Positions 8,156 to 38,481 of a DNA stretch of 38,523 bases are shown here, in pieces. The notes beneath the pieces are model-generated. The model saw nothing but the letters and a program-made list of their open reading frames with translations, was not told the origin of the DNA and searched no databases. This stretch comes from an uncultured Rhodobiaceae bacterium (GTDB lineage: Archaea; Thermoplasmatota; Poseidoniia; Poseidoniales; Poseidoniaceae). The stretch lies in assembly GCA_937911445.1 (NCBI GenBank), contig CALDQY010000003.1:1-38523 (forward strand), written 5' to 3'. Both the position numbers and the translations under genes were made by a program. The first letter of the stretch is position 1. Each line of letters opens with the position of its first letter.

Positions 8156-8251
8156 AATTTCAACTCGCTGCACAAGCCACCGACGCAGCGGTAACGTGTG
8201 CTGATTTGATGCGAGCGCTGCTCCCTTTTCAACCCCTCACATGGGTTTGCA

Positions 8252-11310: not shown

Positions 11311-11401
11311 GTTCCAGTCTCATGCTTCGTCATTTTAGTCCCTTGCATTGTAAAATTGCTGCAAAGCATATCTTCAAGTGCTCGACATTCAAGGCACCCT
11401 C

Positions 11402-11842
11402 ATGGAGAACACCATCACCATCGAAGCCTTTGCCCACTGTGACGGCCCATGTGGCGTCTACGACCCTGCAAGTGCACGTGTTGCAGCAGAAGCCGTGCAA
11501 TCAATGACCAAGAAAATGGTAGCATTGAGCACCGGCGATGCAGACAAGTCCGCTGCCTCCTACATCAACACGATGAGCCGCTACGCAGCTATCAAGGAAG
11601 AAGAAGCACAGAAGTGCAAAGACGAACTTCTCGTCCTCTGGACAGATTTCTTCAAGCCTCAACATCTAGAGGCAAATCCAGATCTTCACACAACGTTTTG
11701 GATGGCTGCAAAACTTTGCTCAGCGTGCAAGGTTGAAGTCTCCGAACAACACGCACAGGAGTTGATGGATGCTGTTGAAGCCATTCACAACATGTTCTGG
11801 GCAACCAAGGGGCGAGACGTCTCTTGGGTCCGTGCAAGTTGA
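11402..11842 (+). CDS. sodN: Nickel superoxide dismutase precursor
   Basis: Ni-hook HCDGPCGVYDP after a short leader (MENTITIEAFA). Also KEEEAQKCK..L.VLWTDFFK, KLCSACK and FWATK. Confidence 0.95.
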   Translation: MENTITIEAFAHCDGPCGVYDPASARVAAEAVQSMTKKMVALSTGDADKSAASYINTMSRYAAIKEEEAQKCKDELLVLWTDFFKPQHLEANPDLHTTFWMAAKLCSACKVEVSEQHAQELMDAVEAIHNMFWATKGRDVSWVRAS

Positions 11843-20233: not shown

Positions 20234-20310
20234 GTTCCAATCCAAAACACACACATGAATGAATGCTACGACAGGACAAGACCCATAGTCGAGCAAATGG
20301 TCGGAGATGT

Positions 20311-21363
20311 ATGGGGCAGTTGTATCTTACAACATTCGGAGCCTCTGAATGGATTATTCTGAGTGTGTGGATTCTCGCAGTTGTGTCTCCCATTGCGTAT
20401 TCTATCCGAAACAAGACGCCGATTGCGCTGGGGATTTCCGTTGGGTTACTGCTGGGTTACATCGTCCAATACGCGTTTGTTGTTATGGCTTCGTACGGTC
20501 TTGAGTTTCGGTTCGTATGGTTTGACTTCTGGCTGATTCCTGAGCGATTGGATTCCGTTGTCTACTACCCAACCCTGTTCACAGCAGGCTTCTTGCATAG
20601 CATGAGTGATGTGACGCACGTGCTTGGTAATGTTTTGGTCATTGCTTTGGTGGGCATTCCTCTTGAACAACGCTTGGGAGCCAAACGCTTCACAGTCGTC
20701 TATGTGACAGGATTGCTCGGAGGTTCAATTGCCTGGGTCTTCTTCAACAGCGGCTCAGGAACACCATCATGGGGCGCTTCAGGAGCTGCATATGGTCTGC
20801 TCGGAGCATACCTCTCTGGCTGGCCTCGTGATGAAATTCCATTCCCTCTCATTTTGATCCGGCCTTGGCCGGTTACCATCATTGCCTTGTTCTATTTTGG
20901 ATTTGAGTTGGTACGAGCGTTCAACACGGTTGGCCTCGGTGGTTATTCCACCGTTGCCCACATGGCGCACATTGGAGGATTTGTCGCTGCTTACGCTTTG
21001 CTTCCATTGGTGGCAAGAGGCGGGCCATACCCATTGGGTATTGTCGATGGAGGGCCGAAAGGATTCGGACATTCAAGAGCTGGATTTGACCAGATCAAAT
21101 CATCCATGGTTGATGTATCTGGCATCGACGACCCATGGACAGAACTTGGACTTGACGTTCCGAAGAATCTACGCGAGCCACTTCGAAAATTGAAGGAAGC
21201 TGGAGATGAAGCGGAAACGCGAATTGCATGGATGGAGCACATTGCCGAGGCTGGCGACTGCCCTGTTTGCCTCGCCCCATTGGGCATGGTCGAACGCCGT
21301 ACAGGGCCCCAACTCCAATGTTCGAAAGAACCGAAGCACTTGTCATGGCCAAAGCATGGATAA
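20311..21363 (+). CDS. Rhomboid family intramembrane serine protease with C-terminal soluble extension
   Basis: FTAGFLH..HVLGN, G.PLEQRLG, GASGA (catalytic Ser), AHMAHIGG (His). C-terminal CPVC...C..H. Confidence 0.9.
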   Translation: MGQLYLTTFGASEWIILSVWILAVVSPIAYSIRNKTPIALGISVGLLLGYIVQYAFVVMASYGLEFRFVWFDFWLIPERLDSVVYYPTLFTAGFLHSMSDVTHVLGNVLVIALVGIPLEQRLGAKRFTVVYVTGLLGGSIAWVFFNSGSGTPSWGASGAAYGLLGAYLSGWPRDEIPFPLILIRPWPVTIIALFYFGFELVRAFNTVGLGGYSTVAHMAHIGGFVAAYALLPLVARGGPYPLGIVDGGPKGFGHSRAGFDQIKSSMVDVSGIDDPWTELGLDVPKNLREPLRKLKEAGDEAETRIAWMEHIAEAGDCPVCLAPLGMVERRTGPQLQCSKEPKHLSWPKHG

Positions 21364-21424
21364 TCAGGGCCAATCAACACACGTTGGAGCGATACCATCA
21401 AAATATATCGATTTGTGGTTGGGT

Positions 21425-24400
21425 ATGGCGATTATGCGCGGATGGTCTCATCACTCAAATCCAAGGCAGGCGTTGTTCTTGGTTTTGCTCATGCTTTTGC
21501 TGCCTATGGCATCGCAAGTTCAGGCGATAGAAACGCTCCCTGAGACACAAGAACCAACACACGCGCCTCCAATTCTGGTCGAAGGCTTGCCACCGCTCAT
21601 GTGTGGTGAGGAGTTGTGTGACCGACCACTTAGAATGTACGACCGTCAAGGGCGAGATGCCGCTTTGGATTATGGATGGTGGCAGGCCTATGGCCCAGAC
21701 CTCGACTGGAATGGTATGGATGACCGTCTTCAGCGTGTTCTAGACGGAATGGATTCTGTATCACCAACAGCGATCATTGGTGCAGACGGGCGAAAGACTG
21801 TCGCAATCGTAGTAGATTATGCATGGCACCCCTCAGAACCAGAAATCCAATCACTCAAATCAACACTTGAAGCACATGGCTGGGTTGGTGTGGAAAATGG
21901 CGCATGGTTTGAAGTGCTCAGGAGCATTGACAGCATCGTTGTTGACAAGGTTCCGGTTTCAGCTCTGATGGACATCTATCACCTTGAAGGGGTTGTCGTC
22001 ATAGAGATGCAAAACGTCATGGCTCCAGTGAATGACGTCGCTGCAAAAGCAGCTTTAGCACGTCCATCTCTGGAGTATGGGAACACTGCAAACGAACTCG
22101 GTTACTATGGAACAGGTGTCGTCATAGCAGTTATGGATACAGGTGTTGATAACGAACACCGCTCTCTCAACGACTTTGATGATGTTGATGATGCGCCAGA
22201 TGCAGATGCTTCGACATACAGCGATCAAAAGTGGGTTGCAGGTTTTGATGCAACATCTCCCAATCCGAATCCAGATGGCTCCACAGATCCCGATGATGGT
22301 AACGGTCACGGAACACACGTTGCAGGTTCGGCACTGGGTACGGGGGATTCATCGCGTGTTCACAGAGGAACAGCACCTGGTGCTGCTTTGGTTGACATCA
22401 AAGTCCTCACAGATGGCGGAGGAACCAATTCACAAGCGAGTCTGGCAGGCATTCAGTGGATGATCAACAACAAAGATACGGACTGGGGAATCAATTCGAC
22501 GTACCGGGGTATCCAAATCGCTTCCATGTCTTATGGTTCGGTTGGCACACCGCTCAACTCTGGTGACCAAGGTGATAACGGGACAAGCGCAGAAGCCTCA
22601 CTCATCAATCAAGCGACCGCTGAAGGCATTATTTGCGTTGTAGCTATCGGTAATGACGGCAGCAACAGAGTGCCTTCTCCTGGAAGTGCTGATGGCGCAA
22701 TAACAGTTGGCTCAGTGAACGACAAGAATACGATTCTAAGAGACGATGATGAGCATTCAGATTTCTCAAATTGGGGTCCACGACTTAGTGATGGAGACGA
22801 TGACGAGTGGGATGAACTCAAGCCGGATATTACCTCTTACGGGCACAACATTGTTTCAGCGACATATGGTACATCGCTCCCAATCCCCGGTGACACAGGA
22901 CTTGCGGACGACCAATACGATTCAAAGTCGGGAACGAGCATGGCAACTCCTATTGCATCAGGAGTCGTTGCTCTGATGCTGGAAGCAGATTCCACCCTTA
23001 CGCCTCAAGAAGTCAAGGATATTCTTCGAAACAGTTCCGAACAAAGAGGAGATCCATACGACGAATCCTTGTCAGAAAGGTGGAATGATAAATACGGATT
23101 TGGAATCATTGATGCAGCATGTGCCGTCAATTCAATTGAGGGAAACCCTTGTGACAACGGGTTTGTGGTAAAAGAATCCAAGAGCGATGTCAATGTTAGT
23201 TATCCTTCAAATGGCACTTGGCTGTTGAGTGATTCATTCACTCGAATTTCTGGAGAAGTCAACATGACCGAAATAGATTATCAGCGCGTTGAGTTGTACA
23301 TCGAACAGCATTTCTACGACAGAGGGCCAAAGATGCTCATGAATTGGACTGAAGCTAACGGGTCGATGGAAAATTGGTTCCTTGATGTTGAGATTCAAGA
23401 TTCATGGGTCGATTACAGCTCAAACGAGAAATTCTTACTCCTCCAAGCCAAAGCCTCCGACGATGATGGTAATGTCTCCAACGTGGCATATCGAAAGTTT
23501 AAGGTGTCTCGTGAAAGTATTTTGATCGATACGCCAATTTCGCGAAACGCCTTATCCGGTACCGTTGAAGTCAAAGGTGAAGTCGAAGGCGTGGAGCATG
23601 AACGAATTGAGTATCGCGTGGATGATGGTGACTGGTTGTTTGGTAGTTCAATCCAGACAAACAACAATCCTGGCGATGATGGAAAATCGAGTTGGTCCTT
23701 CAATTGGGACACAACTGAAATTGATGATGGATTCAGACAACTTTCTGTCCGAATGGTCAACAACTCTGGAAAAGAATCACAAATCGCTCAGAGAAGTTAC
23801 ACCATCGATAACATAGAACCTGCCCCATCGCTTCGATTTACAGGAGATGTCGAGGTACTGAATCGAGGCATGCCTGCAGAAGAAGCGTATCAAGGAAGTT
23901 TACTCGAGCTCAAATTCGACGTCTACAATGCAGGCGATGCTGATGCCTCGGATATTTTCGTTCGATTGGTTGCCCCTGGCGATGAATCTGAAGTGTATCC
24001 TTCGCAAGGGCTCATCCCTGAACTTCCGAAAGGAGAATCGGTTCAGGTTACATTGTTTTGGTCAGCGACTGTCGCAGGATCGCATGATGTTCGAATCGAA
24101 CTTGACCCGAACAACGCACAAGGAGACCCTGATACCTCGGACAACGTGTACGTTTTGAATTATGAAATTCTACAACGACCAGATCAACCTGTACTGCGCT
24201 ATTTGCCCGGATTCGTCACCACCTTGCCCGTTGTGCCACTTGTTGATGAAGAATACAAAATCGACATACGGATTGACAACCTCGGCAAATCGGAAGCATT
24301 CTCACTCGACATCGCACTCGAGTATTGGATTCCTGAGGCTGGCTGGCAATTGATTGACGAAGAGCGTGTTGGATTTGTTCCAGGGGCTACCAGTGAATCG

Positions 24401-26275
24401 GGTTACACCATGGTCGATTTTAGACACCAATCGGAGAAGATAGGCGCAGTACTCTACCGTGCTACGCTTACTGGAGATGGTGTCGAAAGTGATTACAGCC
24501 AAACAACGTTCAGTGTCATTGTCAGTGATGTATCAACCGTTGCAGGTTCAACCACACTTTCCCTCTCGGATGGTGAATACCCGGTTGCATTCGTAGGCGT
24601 AGAATCCTCAACACTCGTGTTTACTTCTGTCGATGGAGAACTTCATGCTCGGTCTTTGAATGACAACCTTTTGCTTCTTACAGACACGCTCGTTGACGAC
24701 AACTGGGAAGGGGAGCTCGATGTTTATCTCAGAGATGACGGATTGGTACATGCTGCATGGACGAGCCGCCAACAAACTGAGCAAGGATATTTTATGACCA
24801 ACATTGCCATGACTTCTTTTTCTCCTGCAGGGCAAATGCTCCCTATTCATACGCATCTTACACCTCTAAAAATCTCCGAGGGCAAATATTGGGGACTTGA
24901 TTTGACCGAAGATGATGGGACCATGGTCTTGTCTGGATACCACCGAAATATCTCAACGGGTGGTTCTTGGAGCGATGTCACTTCCATTTTCAGTTTGCAT
25001 TCTTCCTCACCAGATGTGGGCGAGAGTTGGAGTGAACCAAAGACGCATCTTGCAAACGTAGAGATTCATCCTGATGATGGTGACAAATTGTCAACTGTCC
25101 TTGATGATGAGATTTTGCACATTCTCTTCCAACAGGAACGAGACGATGTTACGGGTGTAGAGAGAAGTGGATTGATGTATACAAAAGGTGACCTTTTGTC
25201 TGCTTCATGGTCGTACCAGTCTTCAATTGGAGATGATGCATCTTCTGCACAAATATCGATCATCAACATCGATAATCAAAAAACCATCTTCGCATCTTGG
25301 ATTGAAGGTTCTGGTCAAAATGCAGAGATTGTAACGATTGCTACACAAGGTGATTGGGATGAGGATGTACATCGTGTTCAGGCACCGGGCGCAACCATTC
25401 TCATATACACTCAACGCAATGATATGGTTGAAGTGATTTACGACGAAATCACAGTCAGAGGAAAAGTTGCTCGCTATGGGATTCTGACAATTGACAACGA
25501 GCAGCCGGTTATTGGCCTTGGTAACATTGTATCAGAGAACGGAGTTCTTGGTTACAGTATGAATAACAAGGATGGAATTCTTTTCCTTGTCTCTGAAACA
25601 GGACGATTCTCAATGCAGAAGTTCCTACTCGATGAAGAACAAGAGGCTGGGGAGTCAAAATCCTTACTTGAGCAATTGTTGGAGCCTCTACCTGGTTCGG
25701 ACGAAACGAAGGTGAGGATATTCCTTGGCCTTGTTTCAGTCCTCTTCATTTTGTTTGTTCTTGTTGTGATTTCTCTCCGATCTGGCAGAAAAGAGGATAA
25801 CATCGCTGATGCGGCCATCGTAGAGGAAGACGAAGTTGCCATCCTCGTTCAGGTTGAAGAAGATGAGCAAGAGGAAGAATTGGTTGCCACAGTCCCAATT
25901 ACTCCTCCTGTACAGGTCGAGATGGAGGAACCCACGCTCGCAGCTGAACTGGAAGCAAAGAGCATTGCTGGCGAAGGGAATGCACGATTGAATCGTCGCA
26001 TGAAGAGGAAACAAGATCGTGAGATAGCAGAGATTGTTTCCAAAGGACTGCCTCCGTTGCCAACTCCAACACCGTTACCGGAACTACCAGCTGCCGAAGC
26101 ATTACCACCTCTACCTGTAGCAGAGCCCGGAACTGGTGCGCTACCGCCATTAGCAGATTTGCCTCCTCTTCGTCGCCAGGCGGTATGCCCCTCATGTGGC
26201 GCAAATTTCCCGGTAACCGATTTGATGCGGGCTCAAGTGATGTGTCCAATCTGTTCAGAAAGATTCAACCTTTGA
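21425..26275 (+). CDS. Large membrane-anchored S8 (subtilisin-like) serine protease with Ig/CARDB-like domains
   Basis: Signal-peptide-like LFLVLLMLLLPMASQVQA. Catalytic VMDTGVD, HGTHVAG, GTSMATP. CARDB-like V.N.G..DA..LDP.N..DN. TM IFLGLVSVLFILFVLVVISL, then Pro-rich tail and CPSC..CPIC. Start 21425 or 21434. Confidence 0.9.
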   Translation: MAIMRGWSHHSNPRQALFLVLLMLLLPMASQVQAIETLPETQEPTHAPPILVEGLPPLMCGEELCDRPLRMYDRQGRDAALDYGWWQAYGPDLDWNGMDDRLQRVLDGMDSVSPTAIIGADGRKTVAIVVDYAWHPSEPEIQSLKSTLEAHGWVGVENGAWFEVLRSIDSIVVDKVPVSALMDIYHLEGVVVIEMQNVMAPVNDVAAKAALARPSLEYGNTANELGYYGTGVVIAVMDTGVDNEHRSLNDFDDVDDAPDADASTYSDQKWVAGFDATSPNPNPDGSTDPDDGNGHGTHVAGSALGTGDSSRVHRGTAPGAALVDIKVLTDGGGTNSQASLAGIQWMINNKDTDWGINSTYRGIQIASMSYGSVGTPLNSGDQGDNGTSAEASLINQATAEGIICVVAIGNDGSNRVPSPGSADGAITVGSVNDKNTILRDDDEHSDFSNWGPRLSDGDDDEWDELKPDITSYGHNIVSATYGTSLPIPGDTGLADDQYDSKSGTSMATPIASGVVALMLEADSTLTPQEVKDILRNSSEQRGDPYDESLSERWNDKYGFGIIDAACAVNSIEGNPCDNGFVVKESKSDVNVSYPSNGTWLLSDSFTRISGEVNMTEIDYQRVELYIEQHFYDRGPKMLMNWTEANGSMENWFLDVEIQDSWVDYSSNEKFLLLQAKASDDDGNVSNVAYRKFKVSRESILIDTPISRNALSGTVEVKGEVEGVEHERIEYRVDDGDWLFGSSIQTNNNPGDDGKSSWSFNWDTTEIDDGFRQLSVRMVNNSGKESQIAQRSYTIDNIEPAPSLRFTGDVEVLNRGMPAEEAYQGSLLELKFDVYNAGDADASDIFVRLVAPGDESEVYPSQGLIPELPKGESVQVTLFWSATVAGSHDVRIELDPNNAQGDPDTSDNVYVLNYEILQRPDQPVLRYLPGFVTTLPVVPLVDEEYKIDIRIDNLGKSEAFSLDIALEYWIPEAGWQLIDEERVGFVPGATSESGYTMVDFRHQSEKIGAVLYRATLTGDGVESDYSQTTFSVIVSDVSTVAGSTTLSLSDGEYPVAFVGVESSTLVFTSVDGELHARSLNDNLLLLTDTLVDDNWEGELDVYLRDDGLVHAAWTSRQQTEQGYFMTNIAMTSFSPAGQMLPIHTHLTPLKISEGKYWGLDLTEDDGTMVLSGYHRNISTGGSWSDVTSIFSLHSSSPDVGESWSEPKTHLANVEIHPDDGDKLSTVLDDEILHILFQQERDDVTGVERSGLMYTKGDLLSASWSYQSSIGDDASSAQISIINIDNQKTIFASWIEGSGQNAEIVTIATQGDWDEDVHRVQAPGATILIYTQRNDMVEVIYDEITVRGKVARYGILTIDNEQPVIGLGNIVSENGVLGYSMNNKDGILFLVSETGRFSMQKFLLDEEQEAGESKSLLEQLLEPLPGSDETKVRIFLGLVSVLFILFVLVVISLRSGRKEDNIADAAIVEEDEVAILVQVEEDEQEEELVATVPITPPVQVEMEEPTLAAELEAKSIAGEGNARLNRRMKRKQDREIAEIVSKGLPPLPTPTPLPELPAAEALPPLPVAEPGTGALPPLADLPPLRRQAVCPSCGANFPVTDLMRAQVMCPICSERFNL

Positions 26276-28919: not shown

Positions 28920-29504
28920 ATGCGCATCCTCTTGGCTTCTGCATCTGAACGACGAGGCACCATTCTTCGCCAGCGCTTTGCAAACGTCGAACAAGTCGCG
29001 CTCAAGGGCGTGGATGAATCTGTCTCCCACCAGATTCTCTCCAATCAAGTGAAGGAAGTTGCCTCACGCAAAGCAGAGGCTGTCGTACTCAACGATGAGT
29101 TCGATGTCGTGGTCGTTTCAGATACCCTAGTCGAGGATCCTGATGACGAACATGTCGCACTTGGAAAACCAGTCTCGAGGGAACAAGCTGTTGCTATGCT
29201 TCTCCGATTGCGTGGCCGCCGTCACCGTGTGTGGTCCGCAACGATGGTGCATGCTATGGACAAATGGCATTCAAGCGTTGAATACGCTGTTGTTGAAATC
29301 GAGGACTTTACGGATGATGCATTGGTCGAACTCATCGAATCAGACTCTTGGGTTGGTAAAGCTGGTGGCTATGACTTGGCTGGTATGATGGGAAAATACG
29401 CTCAATTGATTGAAGGCACAGAGCCGACAGTGTTGGGATTTACTCAGTCTTCTCTTGACTTGCTGGACGACGTTCAATCGATGTTCTCCATGAGTCGATC
29501 GTAA
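28920..29504 (+). CDS. maf: Maf family nucleoside triphosphate pyrophosphatase
   Basis: ILLASASERR, VDES, KA, SDTLV, LGKP, L.GR.H.V.S, GKAGGY. Confidence 0.88.
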   Translation: MRILLASASERRGTILRQRFANVEQVALKGVDESVSHQILSNQVKEVASRKAEAVVLNDEFDVVVVSDTLVEDPDDEHVALGKPVSREQAVAMLLRLRGRRHRVWSATMVHAMDKWHSSVEYAVVEIEDFTDDALVELIESDSWVGKAGGYDLAGMMGKYAQLIEGTEPTVLGFTQSSLDLLDDVQSMFSMSRS

Positions 29505-30760
29505 AACATCGGCATTCGGTGCCAGTTGTCCGATGGGAATACAGTATGTCGAATGAACAAAATCCCGAGCAAGAAGGATGCAACACTTTGTGTCCCAATC
29601 CAAATGTACACCGGCAAGTATTCTCCATCCAAAAGCACGGCTCCATCATAGAGAGACCATGTCATAAGGACGCCGCAAGCAAGGAACATCAACACCAGGT
29701 GCCAATGCGTTATCCGTGTTGATGGAGAATAATGCAAGTGATCTTCGTGAAGGAAAATAGCAAACCCGCAGACGACGAAGAAACATGAATAGGCAATCAA
29801 TAACCAATGTGCAGGCTGAATGTTTGCTATGCCTTCATGTCCTGTCCAAATAGGTGCAATTGAAACGAGTGAGAGCAGGGGCAACAGGAAGTACCCTATG
29901 AACACAAATCGAGAATGCGGTTTTGCAAATTTCCCGATGGAGAATCGTAAAACCTTCAACGGGTTCATCATGAAAAATACGTTCAAGAGAAGAACTGCGA
30001 AACCGATATCGATTAAATCCTCTGATATCGAATTCCTCGCTCGCAGAAAACTCGCCACAACGTAACCAATTCCTAAGAGGATGAGGATGAGGAACCGAAC
30101 TGGTAGAGTTTTCGGGTTTGTTGTATTCCAACCTAGCCTGCGATTGAAATGTGAGAGTATGACTGTCGACATCATCATCATGCAAAAGATCCCTACAATG
30201 AAAGCAACCCCAACTTGTATCATGCCATCGATTCCACGCATAAACCATGATGCAACGATAAACAACGAGCAGAACACGAGAACCAATCCGGGCGAATATG
30301 AGAAAATACCAACCTCTCCTGAGTTGCTCTTCTGTTTGACAATGTCAATCGATGATGGCGTGAGCGTGAGTAAAGCGAGGCACATTAAAACGATACCAAT
30401 TCCAGAGAATTCGATGAACACGTCCCAATTACCAATGTAGATGCCAATATGAATGAACAATTGCCCAAGACCGTTGAGTTGCAAAAAGTGACGCATTGTT
30501 GTCCGTTCAAAGGACGGGACTTTGTACACCAGCGGCAACGTATCAAACGCAATACCAGCAAGGATGGCCATGACAGGTCCTAATGCGAAAAGCGTAATCA
30601 AAACAAAGTTCATGATTTCAAGACGCTCAGTGTTCTCGAACAACTCGTAAGGAGAAAAAAATGTTAACCACGCCAGAAGGAATGTTAAGGCGATGAAGAA
30701 CAACATCGATGATGTAAACAGTTCAAGATAAGAACCTGCGAATTGCTGACGCCTGTCCAT
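29474..30760 (-). CDS. Polytopic membrane protein (about 12 TM), function unknown
   Basis: 428 aa of mostly hydrophobic segments, AGGTGA SD, starts 9 nt after the sepF stop. Confidence 0.7.
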   Translation of the reverse strand: MDRRQQFAGSYLELFTSSMLFFIALTFLLAWLTFFSPYELFENTERLEIMNFVLITLFALGPVMAILAGIAFDTLPLVYKVPSFERTTMRHFLQLNGLGQLFIHIGIYIGNWDVFIEFSGIGIVLMCLALLTLTPSSIDIVKQKSNSGEVGIFSYSPGLVLVFCSLFIVASWFMRGIDGMIQVGVAFIVGIFCMMMMSTVILSHFNRRLGWNTTNPKTLPVRFLILILLGIGYVVASFLRARNSISEDLIDIGFAVLLLNVFFMMNPLKVLRFSIGKFAKPHSRFVFIGYFLLPLLSLVSIAPIWTGHEGIANIQPAHWLLIAYSCFFVVCGFAIFLHEDHLHYSPSTRITHWHLVLMFLACGVLMTWSLYDGAVLLDGEYLPVYIWIGTQSVASFLLGILFIRHTVFPSDNWHRMPMFYDRLMENID

Positions 30761-30769
30761 CGTTTCACC

Positions 30770-31321
30770 TCAAGATACGCGCAGCAGACGTGTAATTCCA
30801 AGCTCGTGCTTTTCAATATCAACAACGACATCTGCTCCGGGAATCATCAACAACTTGTCTTCCGAATCCAGAGCAAAGACGCCAACACCTACTTGTTCAC
30901 ACATAACTCGTAACTCTCGTCGACAGGCCTGTTGATGCGATTCCATGTGGACCAATGTTCGTAGATCAACGATCACAGTATCCCCTTGAAGCACTCGTTG
31001 AGCGATGTCTCGCGTGTGGATACGATGCTTTTCATCTGGCTTAACATACCGAAGCGCTCGTGTTGGTCGAGTCATAACCCGTCCTCCATGGTGTGAGAGA
31101 TCGTGGAATGGTTCTCCGTCTGGTGTTACTGGTCCATTCCATTCGAAAGAGATGTTTTCGTCGATTTGAGATGTAGGCGTCTCCTCGACAATTTGGGTTT
31201 CTACTGCAACAGGTTCATTGGTCAATTGCCTGTTTTGCGTGGAAGCAGGTGCTTCTGCAACTCGAGCCGCACCACCCGCATCTGGGTCCGGGAGTCCAAA
31301 GAACTGCCATAGATTTCCCAT
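30770..31321 (-). CDS. sepF: Cell division protein SepF (archaeal type)
   Basis: N-terminal amphipathic MGNLWQFFG, disordered linker, core IAQRVLQGDTVIVDLRTL..RELRVMCEQVGVGVFAL..LLMIP..VVV. Confidence 0.75.
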   Translation of the reverse strand: MGNLWQFFGLPDPDAGGAARVAEAPASTQNRQLTNEPVAVETQIVEETPTSQIDENISFEWNGPVTPDGEPFHDLSHHGGRVMTRPTRALRYVKPDEKHRIHTRDIAQRVLQGDTVIVDLRTLVHMESHQQACRRELRVMCEQVGVGVFALDSEDKLLMIPGADVVVDIEKHELGITRLLRVS

Positions 31322-31326
31322 CGTTA

Positions 31327-34300
31327 TCACAAATCCAAATCATCCAGTAGGTCGGAGAGATTCGTGTCCTGATTCGATGGTGGAGTCATTGAAGGTGTCG
31401 GTTGATAGGTAGGTGCAGGTGCTTGATTTGCTGCCAGATATTGCTCACCATAGTACGCCCATTGTTCCATGGTCCAACCAGCCGGCAGGCCAGTGGCTGG
31501 GAGTGGAGGGCCTTGATTCACGACTGGCTGTTCAACAAACGGTTCTGGTTGAACAGGCGCTTGTGGTGCTGGCTGCTCGTATGTGGGCAATTCCGAAGGC
31601 GCATAACTTGGTAAGGGCGTTGTATCCCATGCTTTGTTCGATGGAGTCTCGACCAAATCTGGCGGTGAACGGCGAGTGATGAGCAGGAACGATGCCAACA
31701 TGATCACCAAACCAACGAGTCCTAGAATGACGATCGACATGGTTTTAGAGACACCCAATGTATCGCTGAACTCTTCGATGAATCCTTCAGGGGGCGGTTC
31801 TGCAACATCGATGGTAAGCGTAAATGTGTCCGTCGAAAGATCGTCATCGGTTACAGTGAGGTTGATCTTCCACGTGCCAACCGGTAAATCGGTTATCGAT
31901 ACTACAGGCCCAGTTTCACCAAGGTCATTCTCGCCTCTCCACTCAAATGTCCAAACGTAGAGCATGTTCAGCAGATCTGAATCTGAGTCCGTTGTCCCAT
32001 CGGATGAGAGGTTGAGCGTATCGCCCTTCACGAGGTTGTCAAGTGATCCGTTGGCGAACGAAATCTCTGCGCCCGGCAGGACGTTCTGAACTTTGACAAC
32101 AGCCGAAATCGATGCCATGGCACCATCGTCGTCCTTCACCCATGCCGTAACGGTTCGGAACTGAGGGTTGCTGGTCTCCCATGTGTACTCAAAATGAGTC
32201 CCACTCACATCGCAGTCATTGTTCAAGGTGCCATCGAGGTCCGCATCACGTGTTCCGTCGATATCCCAACAGACTTCCAGTGAATCCTTGTCTGAAGCCG
32301 TATCATCAACAGCGACGTCAAAGACCACTTCGTCGTCTTCATCAACCGTAAGGCCTTTGTTGACAGCGTTGAGGAAATTCGCTTCTGCTGTCATGGTTGG
32401 CGGTACGTTGACAATTGTGACCTTTGCGAGCGATGTGGAAGAGGTCGCTCCGTCGTCATCAACAGCACGAACTGAGATGATGTGTTCTCCAGACGTTGGC
32501 CACGAGGTTGAAACATCGGAGGCGGAACCATCAGTGGATACGGTGAAATTATCGAGAACATCACTTAGGTTCCAGTCGATGATGAGTCCATCACGGTCGT
32601 TGAGTGTATCATCGCCTTGGGCACGAAGAATGACGGTCTGATCCTCTTGGAGTACCCAGGTTCCATTCGCATCGAATGGTGTGTTTACGCCTGCAATCCA
32701 CACGCCAATTTCGCCGATGGTTGGGGCTACATTCAGAACTTCAATCGATGAAAGCACTTCGGTTTCTTCGCCATCATCGTCGGTTGCGATGGCACGGATT
32801 GGCATCGTTCCCTCCTCAAGTGGCGAAAACGTACACGTCGGTTGCGTTAACCCTTCAAGACAGTTCAAATCTGGCCAAGAAATACTGACCTGCTGGCCCG
32901 ATGGAGATACTGTATCAATATCGCCGCTATCACTGGCATCGATGGTGATGGAGGATTCGACAGCAATTTCCGGTGGGTGGCTGAGGTTGATGTACGGTGC
33001 TCGATTCAGGATGGTGACATTGCTGATCAAAACAGTTGAGTCAAGTTCATTGTCGGTTACAATGGTTCGCAATTCCCAGTCACCGTCGTCAGACCAGTTC
33101 CAACTGATAGCACAATCTGGCGTTGTAATGACATCGACAAGACCTGGACGTGATTCAATTTCAAATCGGCACTCGACGTCTCCACCATCAGGGTCAAAGG
33201 AAGAACGGGCGTCAATGAAGACGTCCTCGAACGTGTAATTCCCAGTGTCGATAGCAATGGATGCGTTCGGTGCACGGCCGATGAAGACGTCAACAGTAGC
33301 TTGGTTGTTGCTTCGATTGGCGTCTCCGGTGATGAGCTCATCCGGATCAACGGTGAAGGTCAATGTCTGGTTGCCGATGGTGGAATCTTCAGGAACAATC
33401 CAGTCGATTACAATGCGTTGCTCACTGTACGCCTCGATGGATGGAACAGCCTGTCGGCTCGAATCGCCATCGGGCACAACAATTTCCATTTCTGTTGAAG
33501 GCGATGGCAAAACACCTCTGTTTTGGGCTGGTAGAGAGAAGGAGAGTTCGTCACCGGGCAAGGCGTTGTATCCGATCGATTTGGACAGGGTCGCAACCTC
33601 ACCATCGCGAGTTCGAGTAACGATGATTGAATCTTCTTGAGCAACCAAATCGATACCTACAACAGACAAATCGATGACAACCGTGGCAACGCCAATGATT
33701 TCCTGAACTGGATCCCAGACTATCACGCCGTTGCTGCTAAAATCATCGCTAGCGATGGTGTCATCGACGACGTTTGAAACATTGATTGTCTCTTCAATCT
33801 GTCCACTGCTGTTGGTAGTTGGATTAATCAGCGTTCCCGCCATTTCGTAACGCAACTGGAGGTTTTTGTTGACCTCTGGTATGCCGTTTGGAGCAACCGA
33901 GTAGGTTGCATAAATCTTTGATTCTGAGTCTGGTAATGTAGCAATAAATTGAGTCTCAACCTCAATGTCGACGTTCCGATCGCCCGGGTTTTTTCTTTTG
34001 TCAACGCCAAACGAGTCAACGGGTTCGTAGTCTTTCAAGAGCCAATCAATGGTGAAACCAGCAGCGTTTGAGATTCGTATCCAAGAGTTGAATCGAACAG
34101 CGGGACAGTACCAATTAAACCCAGCACTGACGCCTGTGGCGTTCCATTCGTTGACTTTGTACGAATCATCGCATCCTTCGTACTTGATGTTCTGTCCATC
34201 TTCCGTTGGAATTCCATCCTTGGTGACCTGCCAAGATGTATTTTCGGCTCCTTGAGTATCAAACGAGGTCGGGTCGAAGTAATCAGATGAACCACTTACA

Positions 34301-34911
34301 CTCGTGCCTGACATGAAGGGCATGTACCATTGGTCACCCGTCCGCATTGGGAAATCGTATTTTTCTTTTGGCGGGTCGTAATAGGTATCGAATGAGATTG
34401 TGGCGAGGTTCTGGGATAGGAAGCCAAGATTGAATGGTGCAAAGCTGACGTCTAATTCAAATTCCGAATTGATAACTGCGAGATCTCGTACTCGTACGAT
34501 GTCCTCGCCTGAATAATCGATGTCGAGCCTTCCACTGACCCCTTCAAGTGTTGCGCCACTGTTTCCTGATGAGAATTCCCCTTCGATGAGCATCTTGTAT
34601 GCAAGCGTCTGAATCCCGTCAACATTGATGAAAAAGATGTCATCAATTTCGTAAGCAGTGTCCCCGGTGAGTGTATTGAGGCTCGCAGATACGTTGGCTT
34701 GTGCCAGCAGTTGAGAGACATCGAATTGCGTTTCATAGGTCCACTTGTCACCGATGCGCCAGCTTGGGACATCGGTCGAGCTTGTTGTACCTGAGGATTG
34801 GTCAACAGATGGTAGCAGGTCAAGTGTCGTTGTGTCGTTGTTGACAAAGTGCACAGTGGATGAACCTGCCAAAAGGAACAAAACTAGGAATGTCAATACG
34901 CGGTTCGCCAT
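31327..34911 (-). CDS. Large secreted membrane-anchored surface protein (CARDB + PKD-like repeats), paralog B
   Basis: Signal peptide, PSWRIGDKWTY domain, CARDB (VDPDE..DANRSNN), repeated V.DDDG / N..P PKD-like units, TM IVILGLVGLVIMLASFLLI, Pro-rich tail with GLPAGWTMEQW. Confidence 0.8.
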   Translation of the reverse strand: MANRVLTFLVLFLLAGSSTVHFVNNDTTTLDLLPSVDQSSGTTSSTDVPSWRIGDKWTYETQFDVSQLLAQANVSASLNTLTGDTAYEIDDIFFINVDGIQTLAYKMLIEGEFSSGNSGATLEGVSGRLDIDYSGEDIVRVRDLAVINSEFELDVSFAPFNLGFLSQNLATISFDTYYDPPKEKYDFPMRTGDQWYMPFMSGTSVSGSSDYFDPTSFDTQGAENTSWQVTKDGIPTEDGQNIKYEGCDDSYKVNEWNATGVSAGFNWYCPAVRFNSWIRISNAAGFTIDWLLKDYEPVDSFGVDKRKNPGDRNVDIEVETQFIATLPDSESKIYATYSVAPNGIPEVNKNLQLRYEMAGTLINPTTNSSGQIEETINVSNVVDDTIASDDFSSNGVIVWDPVQEIIGVATVVIDLSVVGIDLVAQEDSIIVTRTRDGEVATLSKSIGYNALPGDELSFSLPAQNRGVLPSPSTEMEIVVPDGDSSRQAVPSIEAYSEQRIVIDWIVPEDSTIGNQTLTFTVDPDELITGDANRSNNQATVDVFIGRAPNASIAIDTGNYTFEDVFIDARSSFDPDGGDVECRFEIESRPGLVDVITTPDCAISWNWSDDGDWELRTIVTDNELDSTVLISNVTILNRAPYINLSHPPEIAVESSITIDASDSGDIDTVSPSGQQVSISWPDLNCLEGLTQPTCTFSPLEEGTMPIRAIATDDDGEETEVLSSIEVLNVAPTIGEIGVWIAGVNTPFDANGTWVLQEDQTVILRAQGDDTLNDRDGLIIDWNLSDVLDNFTVSTDGSASDVSTSWPTSGEHIISVRAVDDDGATSSTSLAKVTIVNVPPTMTAEANFLNAVNKGLTVDEDDEVVFDVAVDDTASDKDSLEVCWDIDGTRDADLDGTLNNDCDVSGTHFEYTWETSNPQFRTVTAWVKDDDGAMASISAVVKVQNVLPGAEISFANGSLDNLVKGDTLNLSSDGTTDSDSDLLNMLYVWTFEWRGENDLGETGPVVSITDLPVGTWKINLTVTDDDLSTDTFTLTIDVAEPPPEGFIEEFSDTLGVSKTMSIVILGLVGLVIMLASFLLITRRSPPDLVETPSNKAWDTTPLPSYAPSELPTYEQPAPQAPVQPEPFVEQPVVNQGPPLPATGLPAGWTMEQWAYYGEQYLAANQAPAPTYQPTPSMTPPSNQDTNLSDLLDDLDL

Positions 34912-34935
34912 GTGTGAATGTCTGCTTTCTCGTAC

Positions 34936-37900
34936 TTAGGAATTGTCAACCTGCGAGTCGAGCCATTGTTGACCATAGTGCTCCCACTGCTCCATCGTCC
35001 ACCCCTCGGGCAATCCGCCTTCTGGAAGAGGGGGTCCAGTTGTAGGCGCAGGGGCTACGTTGACTGAATCAAAGGCTCGTTCAATAGGTGGATCTTGTGG
35101 TCGATTGCGACGTGCTGAGATTTCATGCGGCATCAGGCCGACTTCCTCATCGCTGAAAATTGCGTTCTGCTGCTGGTCAAGCCGATCCATGGCTCGTTGT
35201 TGTCTGCCTGAACGTCGACGTCGGGTCATCATGCCGAGGACAAGGAGCATGAACGCAAGCAATGAAAGTTGAGCAACTGGATTGGCTTCATCGCCGACGA
35301 GGGCAGCGCCTAATTCTTCAACGATTGTACGTTCTGGGGCACCGATCTCAACATTGATGACTCGAGTTCCGGGTCGTTCCGGATTCTCATCCCAGGCAAT
35401 GACTCGGATTGTGTAAGATCCTTCACGGGTAAACACATGTTCGATTTGTTTACCGATTTTGTCAGCATCGTTGTCTTTGACTCCATCACCATTGCTGTCA
35501 ACAGACGTGTCGAGATCCCAAACGACCGTGATTTGGTCGAGATCATTGATGGAGTCAATCGTTCCAGTTGCATCCAAAAGACATGCTTCGAGGGCGTTGC
35601 AGACAATGTCTTTGGTTCGGACGATTGGTGGGATGTTGAGGACTTCAATGGAGAGAATCTCACTGACACGCACGCCGTCGTCGTCGGTTACGTGATAGAT
35701 GACCGTGTGCGTCCCGCTTGTGTTCCAATGCCAGACCAGCTCATCGCCAATCACATCGCAGTCATCATCAGCACCGCCGATATCGTTGGAATCGAGACCG
35801 GGATCGACATCCCAGCAACGAATCAACGTGTCGTAATCGGAGGGAGTATCGGTAGCATTGCCGACCAATCGAACTTCTTCTCCTTCTGCGAGGGGAAGAA
35901 CTTGCTCCAGTGGCTGAACAACTGGTGGGACGTTCGCAACACTTACCCATCGCTCGTATGTACCGCTGCTGGCCCCTTCAGAGTCGCTTACCTCGAGGCG
36001 CATGCGGTGGAGCCCTGATGTCTCCCACATCATCTCAAATTCAGAAACTCGCCCATCGAAGGTTTTGATGAGATTTGGCTGCGCATCATCTGGCCACCAT
36101 CGGTGGGTTAAGCCATCTAAATCATCGACTGAATCGAGGGCTTGGCCACGGAGATTGACCATTTGGTCCTCCTGAACATGCCAAGTTTGCTGGACATCAA
36201 GCGGTAGGGGACCACTCTCATTGGTCATGGTGACGGACAGCCCGTGGGGGTTGATGTTGGTGAATCGGATATCGATGCTGGCCATGGTCATGGCACTATC
36301 GTCGTCGACGCCAACGGCTTGGAATGTATGCCATCCTTCAGTTGGTGCAGTCGTTGTACAAACTCGCGTGTAGTACCCTTCTTCGCAGATTGCATTTAGC
36401 CAGTACACGTCCACAATCCCTGGAAACGGATCTTCAGAATCTGTATCGTTTGCATAAGCATAGAGTGTAACGGGATGTTCAACTTTGACCTCGTTACGAG
36501 CGCTGATGACCTCGATGTTTGGCGCCCGATTCAAAATGACAACATCAAGAATGCCTTCGACTTGGTCTTGTTCTTCGTCGGTAATGGTCACCTCGACAGG
36601 GTATTCACCATCGTTTGTCCATGTCCAGTTCAGCATGCAATCCATGGATTCAACTCGCGTCCACGCAGCCGAGCGAGTGCCATCGTACCAAGGAACATTA
36701 AACAGACAGGATACATTACCACCGTCTTCATCAAAACTACCTGAGGCATTGATCACCGTCTCGACGTTTGTGTAGACTTCGATGGGCTCGAGGACTGCTG
36801 TCGGTAGACGTCCAATGAACAATTCAATTTCACCGAGGTCGTTATCGGCATCCGCATCTGCAGTATTGACTTGCAGAGGATCGGATTCCCATCGAATTGG
36901 CAAGGTTCCAATCGCTGCATCAGCGGGTACTGTCCAAGTGAAATTGACCTTGTGAGATTCGTATGTGGCGAGCGGTGGTAATCCGAGGTCAAAGATGGAA
37001 CCATCTGGATGATAAATGCGCAAATCTGTTGCTGTGGATGTTGTGATGCCTTTGTTGACAACAGCGACTTCGATGGTTAAGTCATCACCGGGAAGGACAT
37101 TGTAACCGGACAGTGAACTGACAGTGCTTACAACGCCGCTCCTGTTTCGAATGATGACTGCTCGTTCTTCGTCTGCAATCAAGTCGAGGCCAACAAGATA
37201 CTCATCGAGCGTAATGGTGGCTGCACCAACGTAACTTCCAGATTTCGCCATAATGCCATGGCTGGACCAGTCCGTGTTCGTTGCAGAATAGTCAATGCTG
37301 CTACCTGAATCAATCGTTGTGCTTGCTGAACCGTTTGAAGCGGTGTAGACAGTGGTTGAGGCACCATCGTATGCGACCTCAACTCCAACGCCATCAATGG
37401 TCCCATAACACGATGGGCTGAGGTGAACCCATACTTCGAGCGGTGAATCAAGTGCTGTGAGAGAACGCTCAGGAGCGACATCGACACATGTCGGCCGAGT
37501 GCCTGGATCACTGTTGCTTTCAACGCCTGTGGCTCCAACAGGCATGTACTGTTTCAAGCGGAAATCAATGGTCAGGCCAACGTCTTCCTCGGCATGTCGC
37601 CATGCGTAATTGTTGACCGCTGGGCAGTACCATCTGTAACCCGTCGAGACACCATCTGAGTTCCACGATGTCAGCTCATACGATGCATCGCATCCACTGT
37701 AAGCGATTCCAGCTCCGATGGCGTTTCGAGGTTGTCCTACATCGGTGACTTCCCATGTTGTTGTGTTGGTATCTGTTTCTGGTGGCGGGAACGGTGTGAT
37801 GTAATCGCTTTGACCAGACCATTGAGAGGATGCAGTTGTCAGTGAAGTCCACCGTTCTCCATAGCGGAGTGGGAAATCGTATACCTCCGTAGCAGGGCTG

Positions 37901-38436
37901 TATTCGTTCGTAATCGTGATATCACCAAGGATTTGCGTGAGCGAACCGATTCCGTATGGAATGAACTTGATGTACAGATCGAGATCGTTCTTCACAGTCG
38001 CAAAATCGCTCACTCGTAGGTATTCGGTTTGTGTGAATTGGATTTCAGCGTTTCCTGTGAACCCTTCAAGTTCAACACCACTTTTGTCGAAATCTGCAGA
38101 CATCCGCAATTTGTAAACCCATTCGGTTCCATTGTCGAATTGAAGTTCGAGAATATCTACGACTTCAGCAGTCGCATCGCCTCGAATCTCACCCACGTTC
38201 GCTGAAACGCCCGTATCTGTAATGAGGATGGAAGGATCAAACGTCCCTGAGTAAATCCACTTGTCACCGACTCTCCATGATGGTAGGTCGGTCACACCAG
38301 GGTCGGACCCACTTCGCTGGACGACTTGCTCGTTGGAAGGCAGAAGGTTGTGTTCAACCAATGGGATTTGACTGAACCCAATCATGCATGCGAGAACGAG
38401 CAGGGTCAAGACACGTGACTTGAACACTCCGCCCAT
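34936..38436 (-). CDS. Large secreted membrane-anchored surface protein (CARDB + PKD-like repeats), paralog A
   Basis: Same architecture as 31327-34911: PSWRVGDKWIY, GCDASY..WYCPAV, GYNVLPGD, PKD-like repeats, TM followed by RRRR, GLPEGWTMEQW. Start placed at ATG 38436. Confidence 0.8.
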   Translation of the reverse strand: MGGVFKSRVLTLLVLACMIGFSQIPLVEHNLLPSNEQVVQRSGSDPGVTDLPSWRVGDKWIYSGTFDPSILITDTGVSANVGEIRGDATAEVVDILELQFDNGTEWVYKLRMSADFDKSGVELEGFTGNAEIQFTQTEYLRVSDFATVKNDLDLYIKFIPYGIGSLTQILGDITITNEYSPATEVYDFPLRYGERWTSLTTASSQWSGQSDYITPFPPPETDTNTTTWEVTDVGQPRNAIGAGIAYSGCDASYELTSWNSDGVSTGYRWYCPAVNNYAWRHAEEDVGLTIDFRLKQYMPVGATGVESNSDPGTRPTCVDVAPERSLTALDSPLEVWVHLSPSCYGTIDGVGVEVAYDGASTTVYTASNGSASTTIDSGSSIDYSATNTDWSSHGIMAKSGSYVGAATITLDEYLVGLDLIADEERAVIIRNRSGVVSTVSSLSGYNVLPGDDLTIEVAVVNKGITTSTATDLRIYHPDGSIFDLGLPPLATYESHKVNFTWTVPADAAIGTLPIRWESDPLQVNTADADADNDLGEIELFIGRLPTAVLEPIEVYTNVETVINASGSFDEDGGNVSCLFNVPWYDGTRSAAWTRVESMDCMLNWTWTNDGEYPVEVTITDEEQDQVEGILDVVILNRAPNIEVISARNEVKVEHPVTLYAYANDTDSEDPFPGIVDVYWLNAICEEGYYTRVCTTTAPTEGWHTFQAVGVDDDSAMTMASIDIRFTNINPHGLSVTMTNESGPLPLDVQQTWHVQEDQMVNLRGQALDSVDDLDGLTHRWWPDDAQPNLIKTFDGRVSEFEMMWETSGLHRMRLEVSDSEGASSGTYERWVSVANVPPVVQPLEQVLPLAEGEEVRLVGNATDTPSDYDTLIRCWDVDPGLDSNDIGGADDDCDVIGDELVWHWNTSGTHTVIYHVTDDDGVRVSEILSIEVLNIPPIVRTKDIVCNALEACLLDATGTIDSINDLDQITVVWDLDTSVDSNGDGVKDNDADKIGKQIEHVFTREGSYTIRVIAWDENPERPGTRVINVEIGAPERTIVEELGAALVGDEANPVAQLSLLAFMLLVLGMMTRRRRSGRQQRAMDRLDQQQNAIFSDEEVGLMPHEISARRNRPQDPPIERAFDSVNVAPAPTTGPPLPEGGLPEGWTMEQWEHYGQQWLDSQVDNS

Positions 38437-38481
38437 GCATATGCTTAGATGTTCTTGCACATCAAAGGTGCGACGATGGCC

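Follow-up and report, generated by a model that had tools for sequence, protein, structure and literature searches.

Throughout the archaeal order Poseidoniales (Marine Group II), sepF directly follows a gene for a giant, membrane-anchored surface protein, with only a few bases between the two. We analyzed this arrangement starting from a stretch of DNA of 38,523 nucleotides (nt) from an uncultured member of the Poseidoniaceae (GenBank assembly GCA_937911445.1, contig CALDQY010000003.1, positions 1 to 38,523), referred to below as the window. It carries two giant genes, named bigA and bigB here, followed by a short gene and by a gene for a polytopic membrane protein. The short gene codes for a protein of 183 residues, which, judged from profile comparison and a structure model, we read as a fast-evolved SepF ortholog overlooked by current annotation. 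A preliminary description of the locus, made from the sequence alone, had proposed that the surface proteins are co-expressed with the membrane anchor of FtsZ and link the cell envelope to the divisome. We estimate at roughly 50% the probability that giant surface protein and SepF form a lineage-specific division-envelope module of Poseidoniales, in which the tail of the surface protein docks on the division ring.

Linkage of the giant gene and sepF

The minus strand codes for four consecutive open reading frames (ORFs) between positions 29474 and 38460. bigA, the gene for the distal giant type-I surface protein (34936..38436), has 1166 codons from its ATG; an alternative start, a GTG at 38460, would yield 1174 residues. 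bigB, the sepF-proximal giant gene (31327..34911), codes for 1194 residues with the same architecture and a longer tail. The divergent sepF (30770..31321) has 183 codons from its ATG, and its homologs begin at MGNLWQFFGLPDP. The polytopic membrane protein (29474..30760, 428 residues) is an optional downstream member of the cluster. The intergenic gaps, read directly from the sequence, are exactly 24 nt (bigA/bigB), 5 nt (bigB/sepF) and 9 nt (sepF/membrane gene), which bears out the tight, co-oriented layout described initially. The bigB/sepF junction reads ...GATTTGTGA-TAACG-ATGGGA..., and the sepF/membrane-gene junction reads ...TCTTGA-GGTGAAACG-ATGGAC.... The source assembly has 318 contigs and is 87.5% complete. 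The homologs of the small protein are records from Poseidoniales, which fits the assignment of the window to this order.

Conservation of the sepF neighborhood had been set beforehand as a test of the proposed link. The set of loci comprised 80 from public Poseidoniaceae genomes and 20 further ones (13 from family f3, in 12 genera, two from family f2 and five divergent ones from family f1). In 92 of these 100 loci, the distance from the end of a large upstream ORF to sepF is -4 to 89 nt, most often 2-14 nt. Five of the eight exceptions are loci that begin inside or too near sepF (L012, L025, L057, L013, L044), two contain runs of N (L024, L096), and in one the sepF ORF was missed by the script (L069); in L013, L024, L044, L057 and L069, the expected tail was shown directly upstream of sepF. 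No counterexample to the adjacency was found among the 100 loci, and the neighborhood is thus conserved across Poseidoniales.

Within the Poseidoniaceae, bigA and bigB both lie ahead of sepF in 49 of 50 loci that have enough flank, and the order bigA-bigB-sepF-(membrane)-maf-kaiC-glmS-S8 is collinear over about 20 kb. In all of the 20 further loci, sepF is immediately preceded by a same-strand gene for a homolog of 1120-1358 residues. In the f2 and f3 loci, the maf/kaiC/glmS/S8 context is gone (15 of 15), while the pair of giant gene and sepF is kept. Both the head of the giant protein and the SepF core are listed for 70 genomes from families f2 and f3. In 62 of these, the two share contig and strand, and the head is encoded 3.4-4.2 kb upstream; in the remaining eight, the genes are on different contigs, and mostly one of them is within a few kb of the first base of its contig. 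The pair spans 22 genera of three families at 30-35% protein identity, with replaced flanks. What is conserved across the order is the pair of a giant surface-protein gene and, a few bases behind it, sepF.

Identity of the 183-residue protein as SepF

An alignment of 38 order-wide Poseidoniales sequences was compared by hhalign with 22 canonical SepF sequences from other Thermoplasmatota and from Marine Group III (MGIII), and the two were matched over 108 columns (probability 95.6%, E = 1.1e-8). This sets the FHDL motif of the Poseidoniales proteins on the canonical (Y/F)IDL motif. The basic stretch of helix alpha-2, CRRELR/K, is kept in Poseidoniales and aligns with the canonical L(K/R)R...EL(K/R).

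The AlphaFold model of the 183-residue protein has a core (residues ~90-170) with a predicted local distance difference test (pLDDT) score of 84-89. This core domain (P0003 residues 88-180; 30791..31069, minus strand) has the fold of SepF cores, for which a five-stranded sheet with two flanking helices is characteristic. The 11 best Foldseek matches in the PDB are all SepF (template modeling score by target, 0.57-0.78). Upon structural re-alignment (VIA), 3zie_B was matched with a Z-score of 10.5 (root-mean-square deviation (rmsd) 2.0, 80 of 85 residues), followed by 3zig_A (Z 10.4), 3zih_A (Z 9.7) and 7al1 (Z 8.7). SepF accounts for 12 of the 13 top rows, and the next family, IF3-C, scores only Z 6.8.

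The order of elements (N-terminal segment, low-confidence linker, FHDL, core) is that of SepF. The SepF of M. smithii has a membrane peptide (residues 1-12), a linker and a core (54-149) (PMC8178401). The N-terminal segment MGNLWQFFGLPDP (31283..31321, minus strand), a putative membrane-targeting helix, is nearly invariant in the 38-sequence alignment and in a further one of the homologs, and sits where canonical SepF from Thermoplasmatota carry MGxFxKxFG. Its position also matches that of the M. smithii membrane peptide as quoted in PMC8178401. This segment would bind the membrane. For a putative binding of the FtsZ C-terminal domain, the basic residues on alpha-2 are conserved.

The phyletic pattern agrees. 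Of 151 sampled Poseidoniales genomes, 147 have exactly one member of the family. PF04472, the Pfam family of SepF, scores above its cut-off in 86 of 121 Thermoplasmatota genomes, with no such match in nine family-f1 relatives, in eight family-f3 genomes or in the genome under study. One weak match from family f3 falls on the same SepF-like ORF, and in the genome under study the 183-residue ORF is the best, sub-threshold candidate, with no other candidate in this 87.5% complete assembly. PF04472 scans detected no second SepF in the genomes searched. FtsZ paralogs were found in the genome under study and in each of the order's genomes searched for them (31 of 31), as a rule three apiece. Profile alignment, fold, layout and phyletic pattern thus uphold the initial assignment of the short gene to SepF, although Pfam misses it.

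Annotation pipelines miss SepF in Poseidoniales. Pfam and NCBIfam gave chance-level matches only. Among 120 of the 369 homologs, none has a precomputed Pfam domain; the records at NCBI are named hypothetical, and SepF-like is used in two JGI records only. Because Pfam misses the Poseidoniales SepF, Pfam-based surveys of division genes would wrongly score the order as SepF-less.

A third FtsZ-like paralog (L105; contig C71 in the genome under study) has 302 residues, lacks a C-terminal tail and is present across the order. On C71, its gene is convergent to that for a polytopic membrane protein with an acidic tail ending ...DDEIELLD. ESCRT-III (PF03357) was not found in the genome under study (87.5% complete).

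The giant surface proteins

BigA and BigB align over their full length with 32% identity (E = 4e-176), so that their paralogy is not due to chance, as had been claimed. The second copy is mainly a duplication within Poseidoniaceae, and most Thalassarchaeaceae-type genomes have one copy; the claim of two giant paralogs thus holds for the window and does not extend to the whole order. Both proteins are hydrophobic in an N-terminal segment and again, with a single strong peak, near residue 1053-1060; basic residues (arginines) and a tail of ~95-110 residues come after this peak.

Their domain content is that of PKD/CARDB-repeat cell-surface proteins, with a signal or anchor and repeats. In BigA, Pfam detects PKD_4 (51.9 bits, cut-off 27), PKD (33.7 bits, cut-off 23.5) and CARDB (25.3 bits, cut-off 22.7); in BigB, PKD (31.5 bits) and CARDB (29.4 bits) are both above their cut-offs. 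Hydrophobic profile and PKD/CARDB content agree with the single-pass surface proteins proposed initially, and the Ig-like content is confirmed by these matches together with a modeled domain of the invasin/macroglobulin type. The head was modeled from the first 460 residues of BigB (pLDDT 82). Residues 47-299 form a beta-barrel-like unit in this model, which has no Pfam family match; its best structural match is the DUF1849 protein 6ntr (Z 11.3, rmsd 4.2, 199 residues), and autotransporter barrels are also matched (Z ~10.5). Residues 314-418 resemble an invasin/macroglobulin-type Ig domain (Z 12.4), and CARDB and PKD repeats come after it. The predicted order in both proteins thus starts with a signal/anchor, a beta-barrel-like head and an Ig-like domain, continues with CARDB and PKD repeats, and ends with a single membrane span and a disordered cytoplasmic tail.

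The genome under study has only two copies of the head family, both at the sepF locus. Of 151 genomes of the order, 149 encode the family, as a rule with one or two copies: mostly two in Poseidoniaceae, a single one in the Thalassarchaeaceae-type genera, whose genomes are small, and between two and four in a few other cases.

Cytoplasmic tails

The tails of BigA and BigB share a module of ~25 residues, PPLPxxGLPxGWTMEQWxxYGxx(Y/W)L, called the GW module here. In bigA, it is encoded at 34960..35034 (minus strand; PPLPxxGLPxGWTMEQWxxYGxxWL), as read from the translation; in bigB, it is encoded at 31435..31509 (minus strand). The module has no Pfam family match. It is found at the C-terminus of eight large ORFs (858-1819 residues) of the genome under study; the carriers beyond bigA and bigB are on contigs C50, C82, C156, C225, C238 and C296. 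A sepF-specific role of the GW module was therefore rejected. It may be a handle for docking or sorting, of general use in Poseidoniales surface proteins.

The tail of BigB continues beyond the GW module with a variable linker of ~25 residues and ends with LLDDLDL. This acidic-hydrophobic C-terminal peptide (LSDLLDDLDL; 31330..31359, minus strand) is conserved in the tails of orthologs. All 73 readable BigB tails from Poseidoniaceae end with [LW]DD[LF][DE][LF], and the linker before it is variable. With the strict pattern, bigB is the sole ORF of the genome that has such an ending. The 53 BigA orthologs stop a few residues past the GW module, without an acidic end. In Poseidoniaceae, the terminal peptide is thus under strong constraint on the sepF-proximal paralog only. 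An FtsZ-CTD-like short linear motif is characterized by a conserved short peptide that ends the protein behind a variable, disordered linker, and BigB has this arrangement. The sepF-proximal tails from families f2 and f3 have acidic, usually hydrophobic-spaced ends (DLDL, DFDL, DLDF, DDLF, DIEALFDD, DIEALFEE, EEE).

Two segments from FtsZ tails occupy the groove of SepF, LDDFI in M. smithii and DLDV in C. glutamicum, and ion pairs with Lys/Arg residues of SepF contribute to holding them in place (PMC8178401). With its disordered linker and conserved acidic-hydrophobic end, the BigB tail has the design of an FtsZ tail, a likeness over 4-5 residues of sequence. A complex prediction with two copies of SepF (residues 58-186) and the last 60 residues of BigB, supplied as alignments, scored 0.00 and counts neither way. 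Across genera, GW module and tail type showed no clear co-variation with SepF motifs beyond phylogeny.

Four Thalassarchaeaceae-type loci (L084, L086, L087, L093) have sepF-proximal tails without a GW module, which share SMDDAFDDP(E/Q/D)(Y/F)DPF. Those from L084 and L087 also end with DIEALFDD.

Transcription

Contigs from RNA libraries of three studies, for which DNA carry-over is possible, map inside sepF (30810-31135, 1-3 differences) and inside bigB. One contig (34828-35297), from a relative with ~90% identity, crosses the bigA/bigB junction. Of the two junctions, that of bigA and bigB is thus bridged, in a relative, and no contig covers the bigB/sepF junction. A scan for sigma-70 promoters and terminators, with a model that is not archaeal, found sites in numbers below or equal to those in shuffled sequences. 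For the giant gene and sepF, we infer co-transcription and, probably, translational coupling.

The sister order and other Thermoplasmatota

MGIII is the sister order of Poseidoniales, and 37 of its 41 genomes have a canonical SepF. In the MGIII family f4, a membrane-anchored PKD protein of 1139-1221 residues is encoded directly ahead of the canonical sepF in nine of nine loci (L136-L141, L143-L145). This protein has an M6 metalloprotease head (HEFGH; Peptidase_M6, 66.7 bits).

The genomic context of archaeal sepF is variable according to PMC8178401. Other Thermoplasmatota agree with this. Among 30 canonical sepF loci, 21 of 27 upstream neighbors were scanned (six ORFs below 100 residues were omitted); 20 of the 21 are varied housekeeping genes, and one is an Ig-repeat protein. 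The latter (L127, from another family of Thermoplasmatota) is a same-strand ORF with He_PIG, Big_9, Cadherin_5 and Big_7 domains, which is directly upstream of a canonical sepF and runs off the locus. Possibly, this is a third instance in which a surface-protein gene precedes sepF. The class Poseidoniia thus appears to be characterized by a large PKD surface protein encoded ahead of sepF, the head of which has been exchanged or has diverged.

Proposed role and alternative explanations

We propose a lineage-specific division-envelope module. Its conserved core is a giant single-pass surface protein and, encoded a few bases on, the fast-evolved SepF ortholog. In Poseidoniaceae, the surface gene is present in duplicate as bigA and bigB, and many lineages have a further protein with 12 transmembrane segments encoded downstream. 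SepF would most likely still be the membrane anchor of FtsZ, for which its N-terminal amphipathic segment, linker and core with a basic alpha-2 surface would be suited. The sepF-proximal surface protein would be produced together with SepF, and a tail of the BigB type would probably dock on the ring, either on SepF itself or on another ring component. Such docking may couple the insertion, positioning, retention or remodeling of the surface protein to the division site. Our confidence decreases from co-transcription and coupling, over the anchoring of FtsZ by SepF, to the docking of the tail on the ring.

Several observations weigh against this proposal. In Poseidoniaceae, the whole 20-kb region is syntenic, so that adjacency in this family alone proves little. 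No RNA contig from the libraries of the three studies crosses the bigB/sepF junction. The 183-residue protein has no PF04472 match in Pfam at E ≤ 0.1; in the PF04472 scan of the genome, its ORF scored 12.8 bits (E 0.26), under the cut-off of 27, and a sequence-profile search of the PDB retrieved no SepF. The failure to reach the Pfam cut-off is one of a detection criterion, not of a biological one. The likeness of LLDDLDL to FtsZ tail segments extends over 4-5 residues only. The tail of FtsZ-a from the order itself, R(T/S)(I/V)EF(V/I)(N/G), is only loosely like the end of BigB, and so is the end of the second FtsZ paralog (...SVDIHRFD). Outside Poseidoniaceae, the ends of the tails are not uniform (ALFDD, ALFEE, EEE, EELIE, DDLF), and one fixed ligand motif is thus not conserved across the order. 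The upstream protein from MGIII has a cytoplasmic tail of 5-8 residues in most genera, so that the class-wide adjacency cannot rest on a long tail. A homology between its head and that of the Poseidoniales protein was considered and rejected: hhalign gave 0.2%, and the PKD repeats alone align.

One alternative, which we consider possible though not favored, is co-expression without contact. sepF would ride on the transcript of an abundant, possibly S-layer-like surface protein, both being needed in proportion to growth, and the acidic C-terminus would serve sorting, turnover or a partner common to other surface proteins. This is consistent with the tight spacing, which suggests one transcript, and with the GW module on eight unrelated large proteins, which points to general functions of the tails that are unrelated to sepF. 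The adjacency in MGIII, kept with almost no cytoplasmic tail, and the varied tail ends in Thalassarchaeaceae-type genomes fit as well. It is harder to reconcile with co-expression alone that the adjacency outlasted the divergence of the order while all other neighbors changed, and that an invariant terminal peptide is found on the sepF-proximal paralog only, which is not expected for a generic signal.

A more specific form of the proposed module, which we regard as doubtful, is that the acidic C-terminal peptide of BigB enters the groove of SepF as a mimic of the FtsZ tail. SepF would then be a two-way adaptor that ties an extracellular structure of 1000 residues to the Z ring. If true, divisome and cell surface would be connected across the membrane in a planktonic archaeon without a wall, and the BigB peptide might compete with FtsZ and so time the assembly of the ring.

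It is unlikely, in our view, that SepF has been repurposed, with its fold kept, as a dedicated, membrane-bound adaptor or chaperone for the giant surface protein, while FtsZ is tethered otherwise. The strong divergence, which lets the protein fail in Pfam and PDB sequence searches, would be explained, as would the replacement of the canonical strand motif GD(I/V)AG by GVGVFALD, the longer linker and the additional WxGPxTPDGEPFHDL motif in Poseidoniaceae. Other archaeal FtsZ anchors do exist, namely CdpA and CdpC, as described for haloarchaea. However, a second SepF did not turn up in any genome that was searched, yet FtsZ paralogs are encoded in 31 of 31. Membrane segment, FxDL motif and basic alpha-2 are retained, and the sister order holds a canonical SepF at the same genomic position.

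That the adjacency is merely inherited gene order without functional meaning is very unlikely: the Poseidoniaceae loci are indeed collinear over ~20 kb, and the archaeal sepF context is variable as described in PMC8178401, but the pair persists in 22 genera of three families at 30-35% identity with replaced flanks, and its intergenic gaps remain a few bases long.

Other genes of the cluster and the window

The 428-residue membrane protein has ~11-12 hydrophobic segments. Its gene lies behind sepF in 53 of 75 Poseidoniaceae loci, and a convergent maf gene abuts sepF in the 22 loci that lack it. It is absent from all 15 loci of families f2 and f3. The polytopic protein had been listed as part of the putative operon, but this distribution sets it outside the conserved unit; it is an optional passenger of no known family. 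Membership in the NnrS or heme-copper-oxidase-like families (PF05940 or PF00115) was not found, as no Pfam family, including these two, matched at E ≤ 0.1; the sequence search of the PDB settles nothing. A language-model feature score (Atlas) of 0.90 to an NnrS cluster is a lead only.

The convergent maf gene (28920-29504) overlaps the 3' end of the membrane gene (29474-30760) by 31 nt. In lineages without the membrane gene, the end of maf is 6-31 nt from sepF. Bacterial Maf is annotated as septum-associated.

The rest of the window contains ordinary archaeal genes (NMD3, an exosome-type protein, a KaiC-like ATPase, GlmS, an S8 protease and Maf). The S8 protease (21206-26275, 1689 residues) is a surface protein with S8 subtilase, CARDB and Big_7 domains. 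The longest reading of its ORF is overlapped by ~158 nt by a rhomboid protease ORF (20263-21363), and the subtilase start is therefore probably later. The genes for rhomboid and S8 subtilase are syntenic with the sepF cluster in Poseidoniaceae. In an ORF of 456 codons (6803-8173), an N-terminal domain of the exosome Rrp4 type occurs together with two RRM domains, and 11378-11842 is a gene for nickel superoxide dismutase.

Significance and comparison with known systems

The uncultured Poseidoniales rank among the most abundant archaea in the surface ocean. To our knowledge, nothing is known experimentally about their envelope and their division, and we know of little on archaeal FtsZ divisomes outside haloarchaea and methanogens beyond FtsZ1/2 and SepF. 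In Haloferax, envelope proteins are inserted at midcell. A surface protein that is locked to sepF across an order and has a peptide similar to the FtsZ tail is a candidate for coupling envelope growth to constriction in archaea. This hypothesis can be tested on recombinant proteins and does not need a culture.

A literature search found no published description of SepF in Poseidoniales or of a linkage between sepF and a surface protein; the main text of PMC8178401 has no mention of Thermoplasmatota.

Compared with characterized archaeal SepF (7AL1/7AL2 from M. smithii, 3ZIE from A. fulgidus, 3ZIG from P. furiosus; PF04472), the Poseidoniales protein has the same core fold (Z 8.7-10.5) and is homologous by profile-profile comparison. 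It shares the N-terminal hydrophobic/aromatic segment, the linker, the (Y/F)xDL motif and the core, and it is encoded as a single copy beside FtsZ. It differs by being under the Pfam cut-off, by its longer linker (~60 residues) and by the replaced strand motif GD(I/V)AG; the Poseidoniaceae proteins carry an extra conserved WxGPxTPDGEP motif. Its gene is directly behind that for a giant surface protein, whereas the context of archaeal sepF is variable according to PMC8178401.

The BigB tail is like the C-terminal peptide of FtsZ as described in PMC8178401, in that a disordered linker leads to an extreme C-terminal LLDDLDL, which resembles LDDFI and DLDV. In contrast to the FtsZ peptide, it is part of a transmembrane surface protein, not of a tubulin homolog; it also lacks the archaeal GID motif.

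CdpA (PMC12126565) and CdpC (bioRxiv 10.64898/2026.07.16.738847) are lineage-specific, membrane-associated proteins from haloarchaea with disordered linkers, which tie FtsZ/SepF complexes to the membrane. The parallel is that archaeal divisomes recruit clade-specific membrane partners. These proteins, for which homology is not expected, are without a giant ectodomain, and their available descriptions state no link to a sepF operon.

Archaeal surface proteins with PKD or CARDB domains, such as the surface-layer protein 1L0Q, which has PKD, share their repeats with BigA and BigB (Z 8.5 for 1l0q_A to the BigB model). In BigB, the head (residues 47-299) is set apart from these, being of the DUF1849 or autotransporter type only by fold (Z ~10-11, rmsd above 4 Å). 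A further difference is the membrane span of BigA and BigB, which is followed by a long cytoplasmic tail with motifs. With a surface-protein partner that is dedicated and genetically locked to it, the SepF system of Poseidoniales points to a possible connection, so far undescribed, of the cell surface with the division ring.

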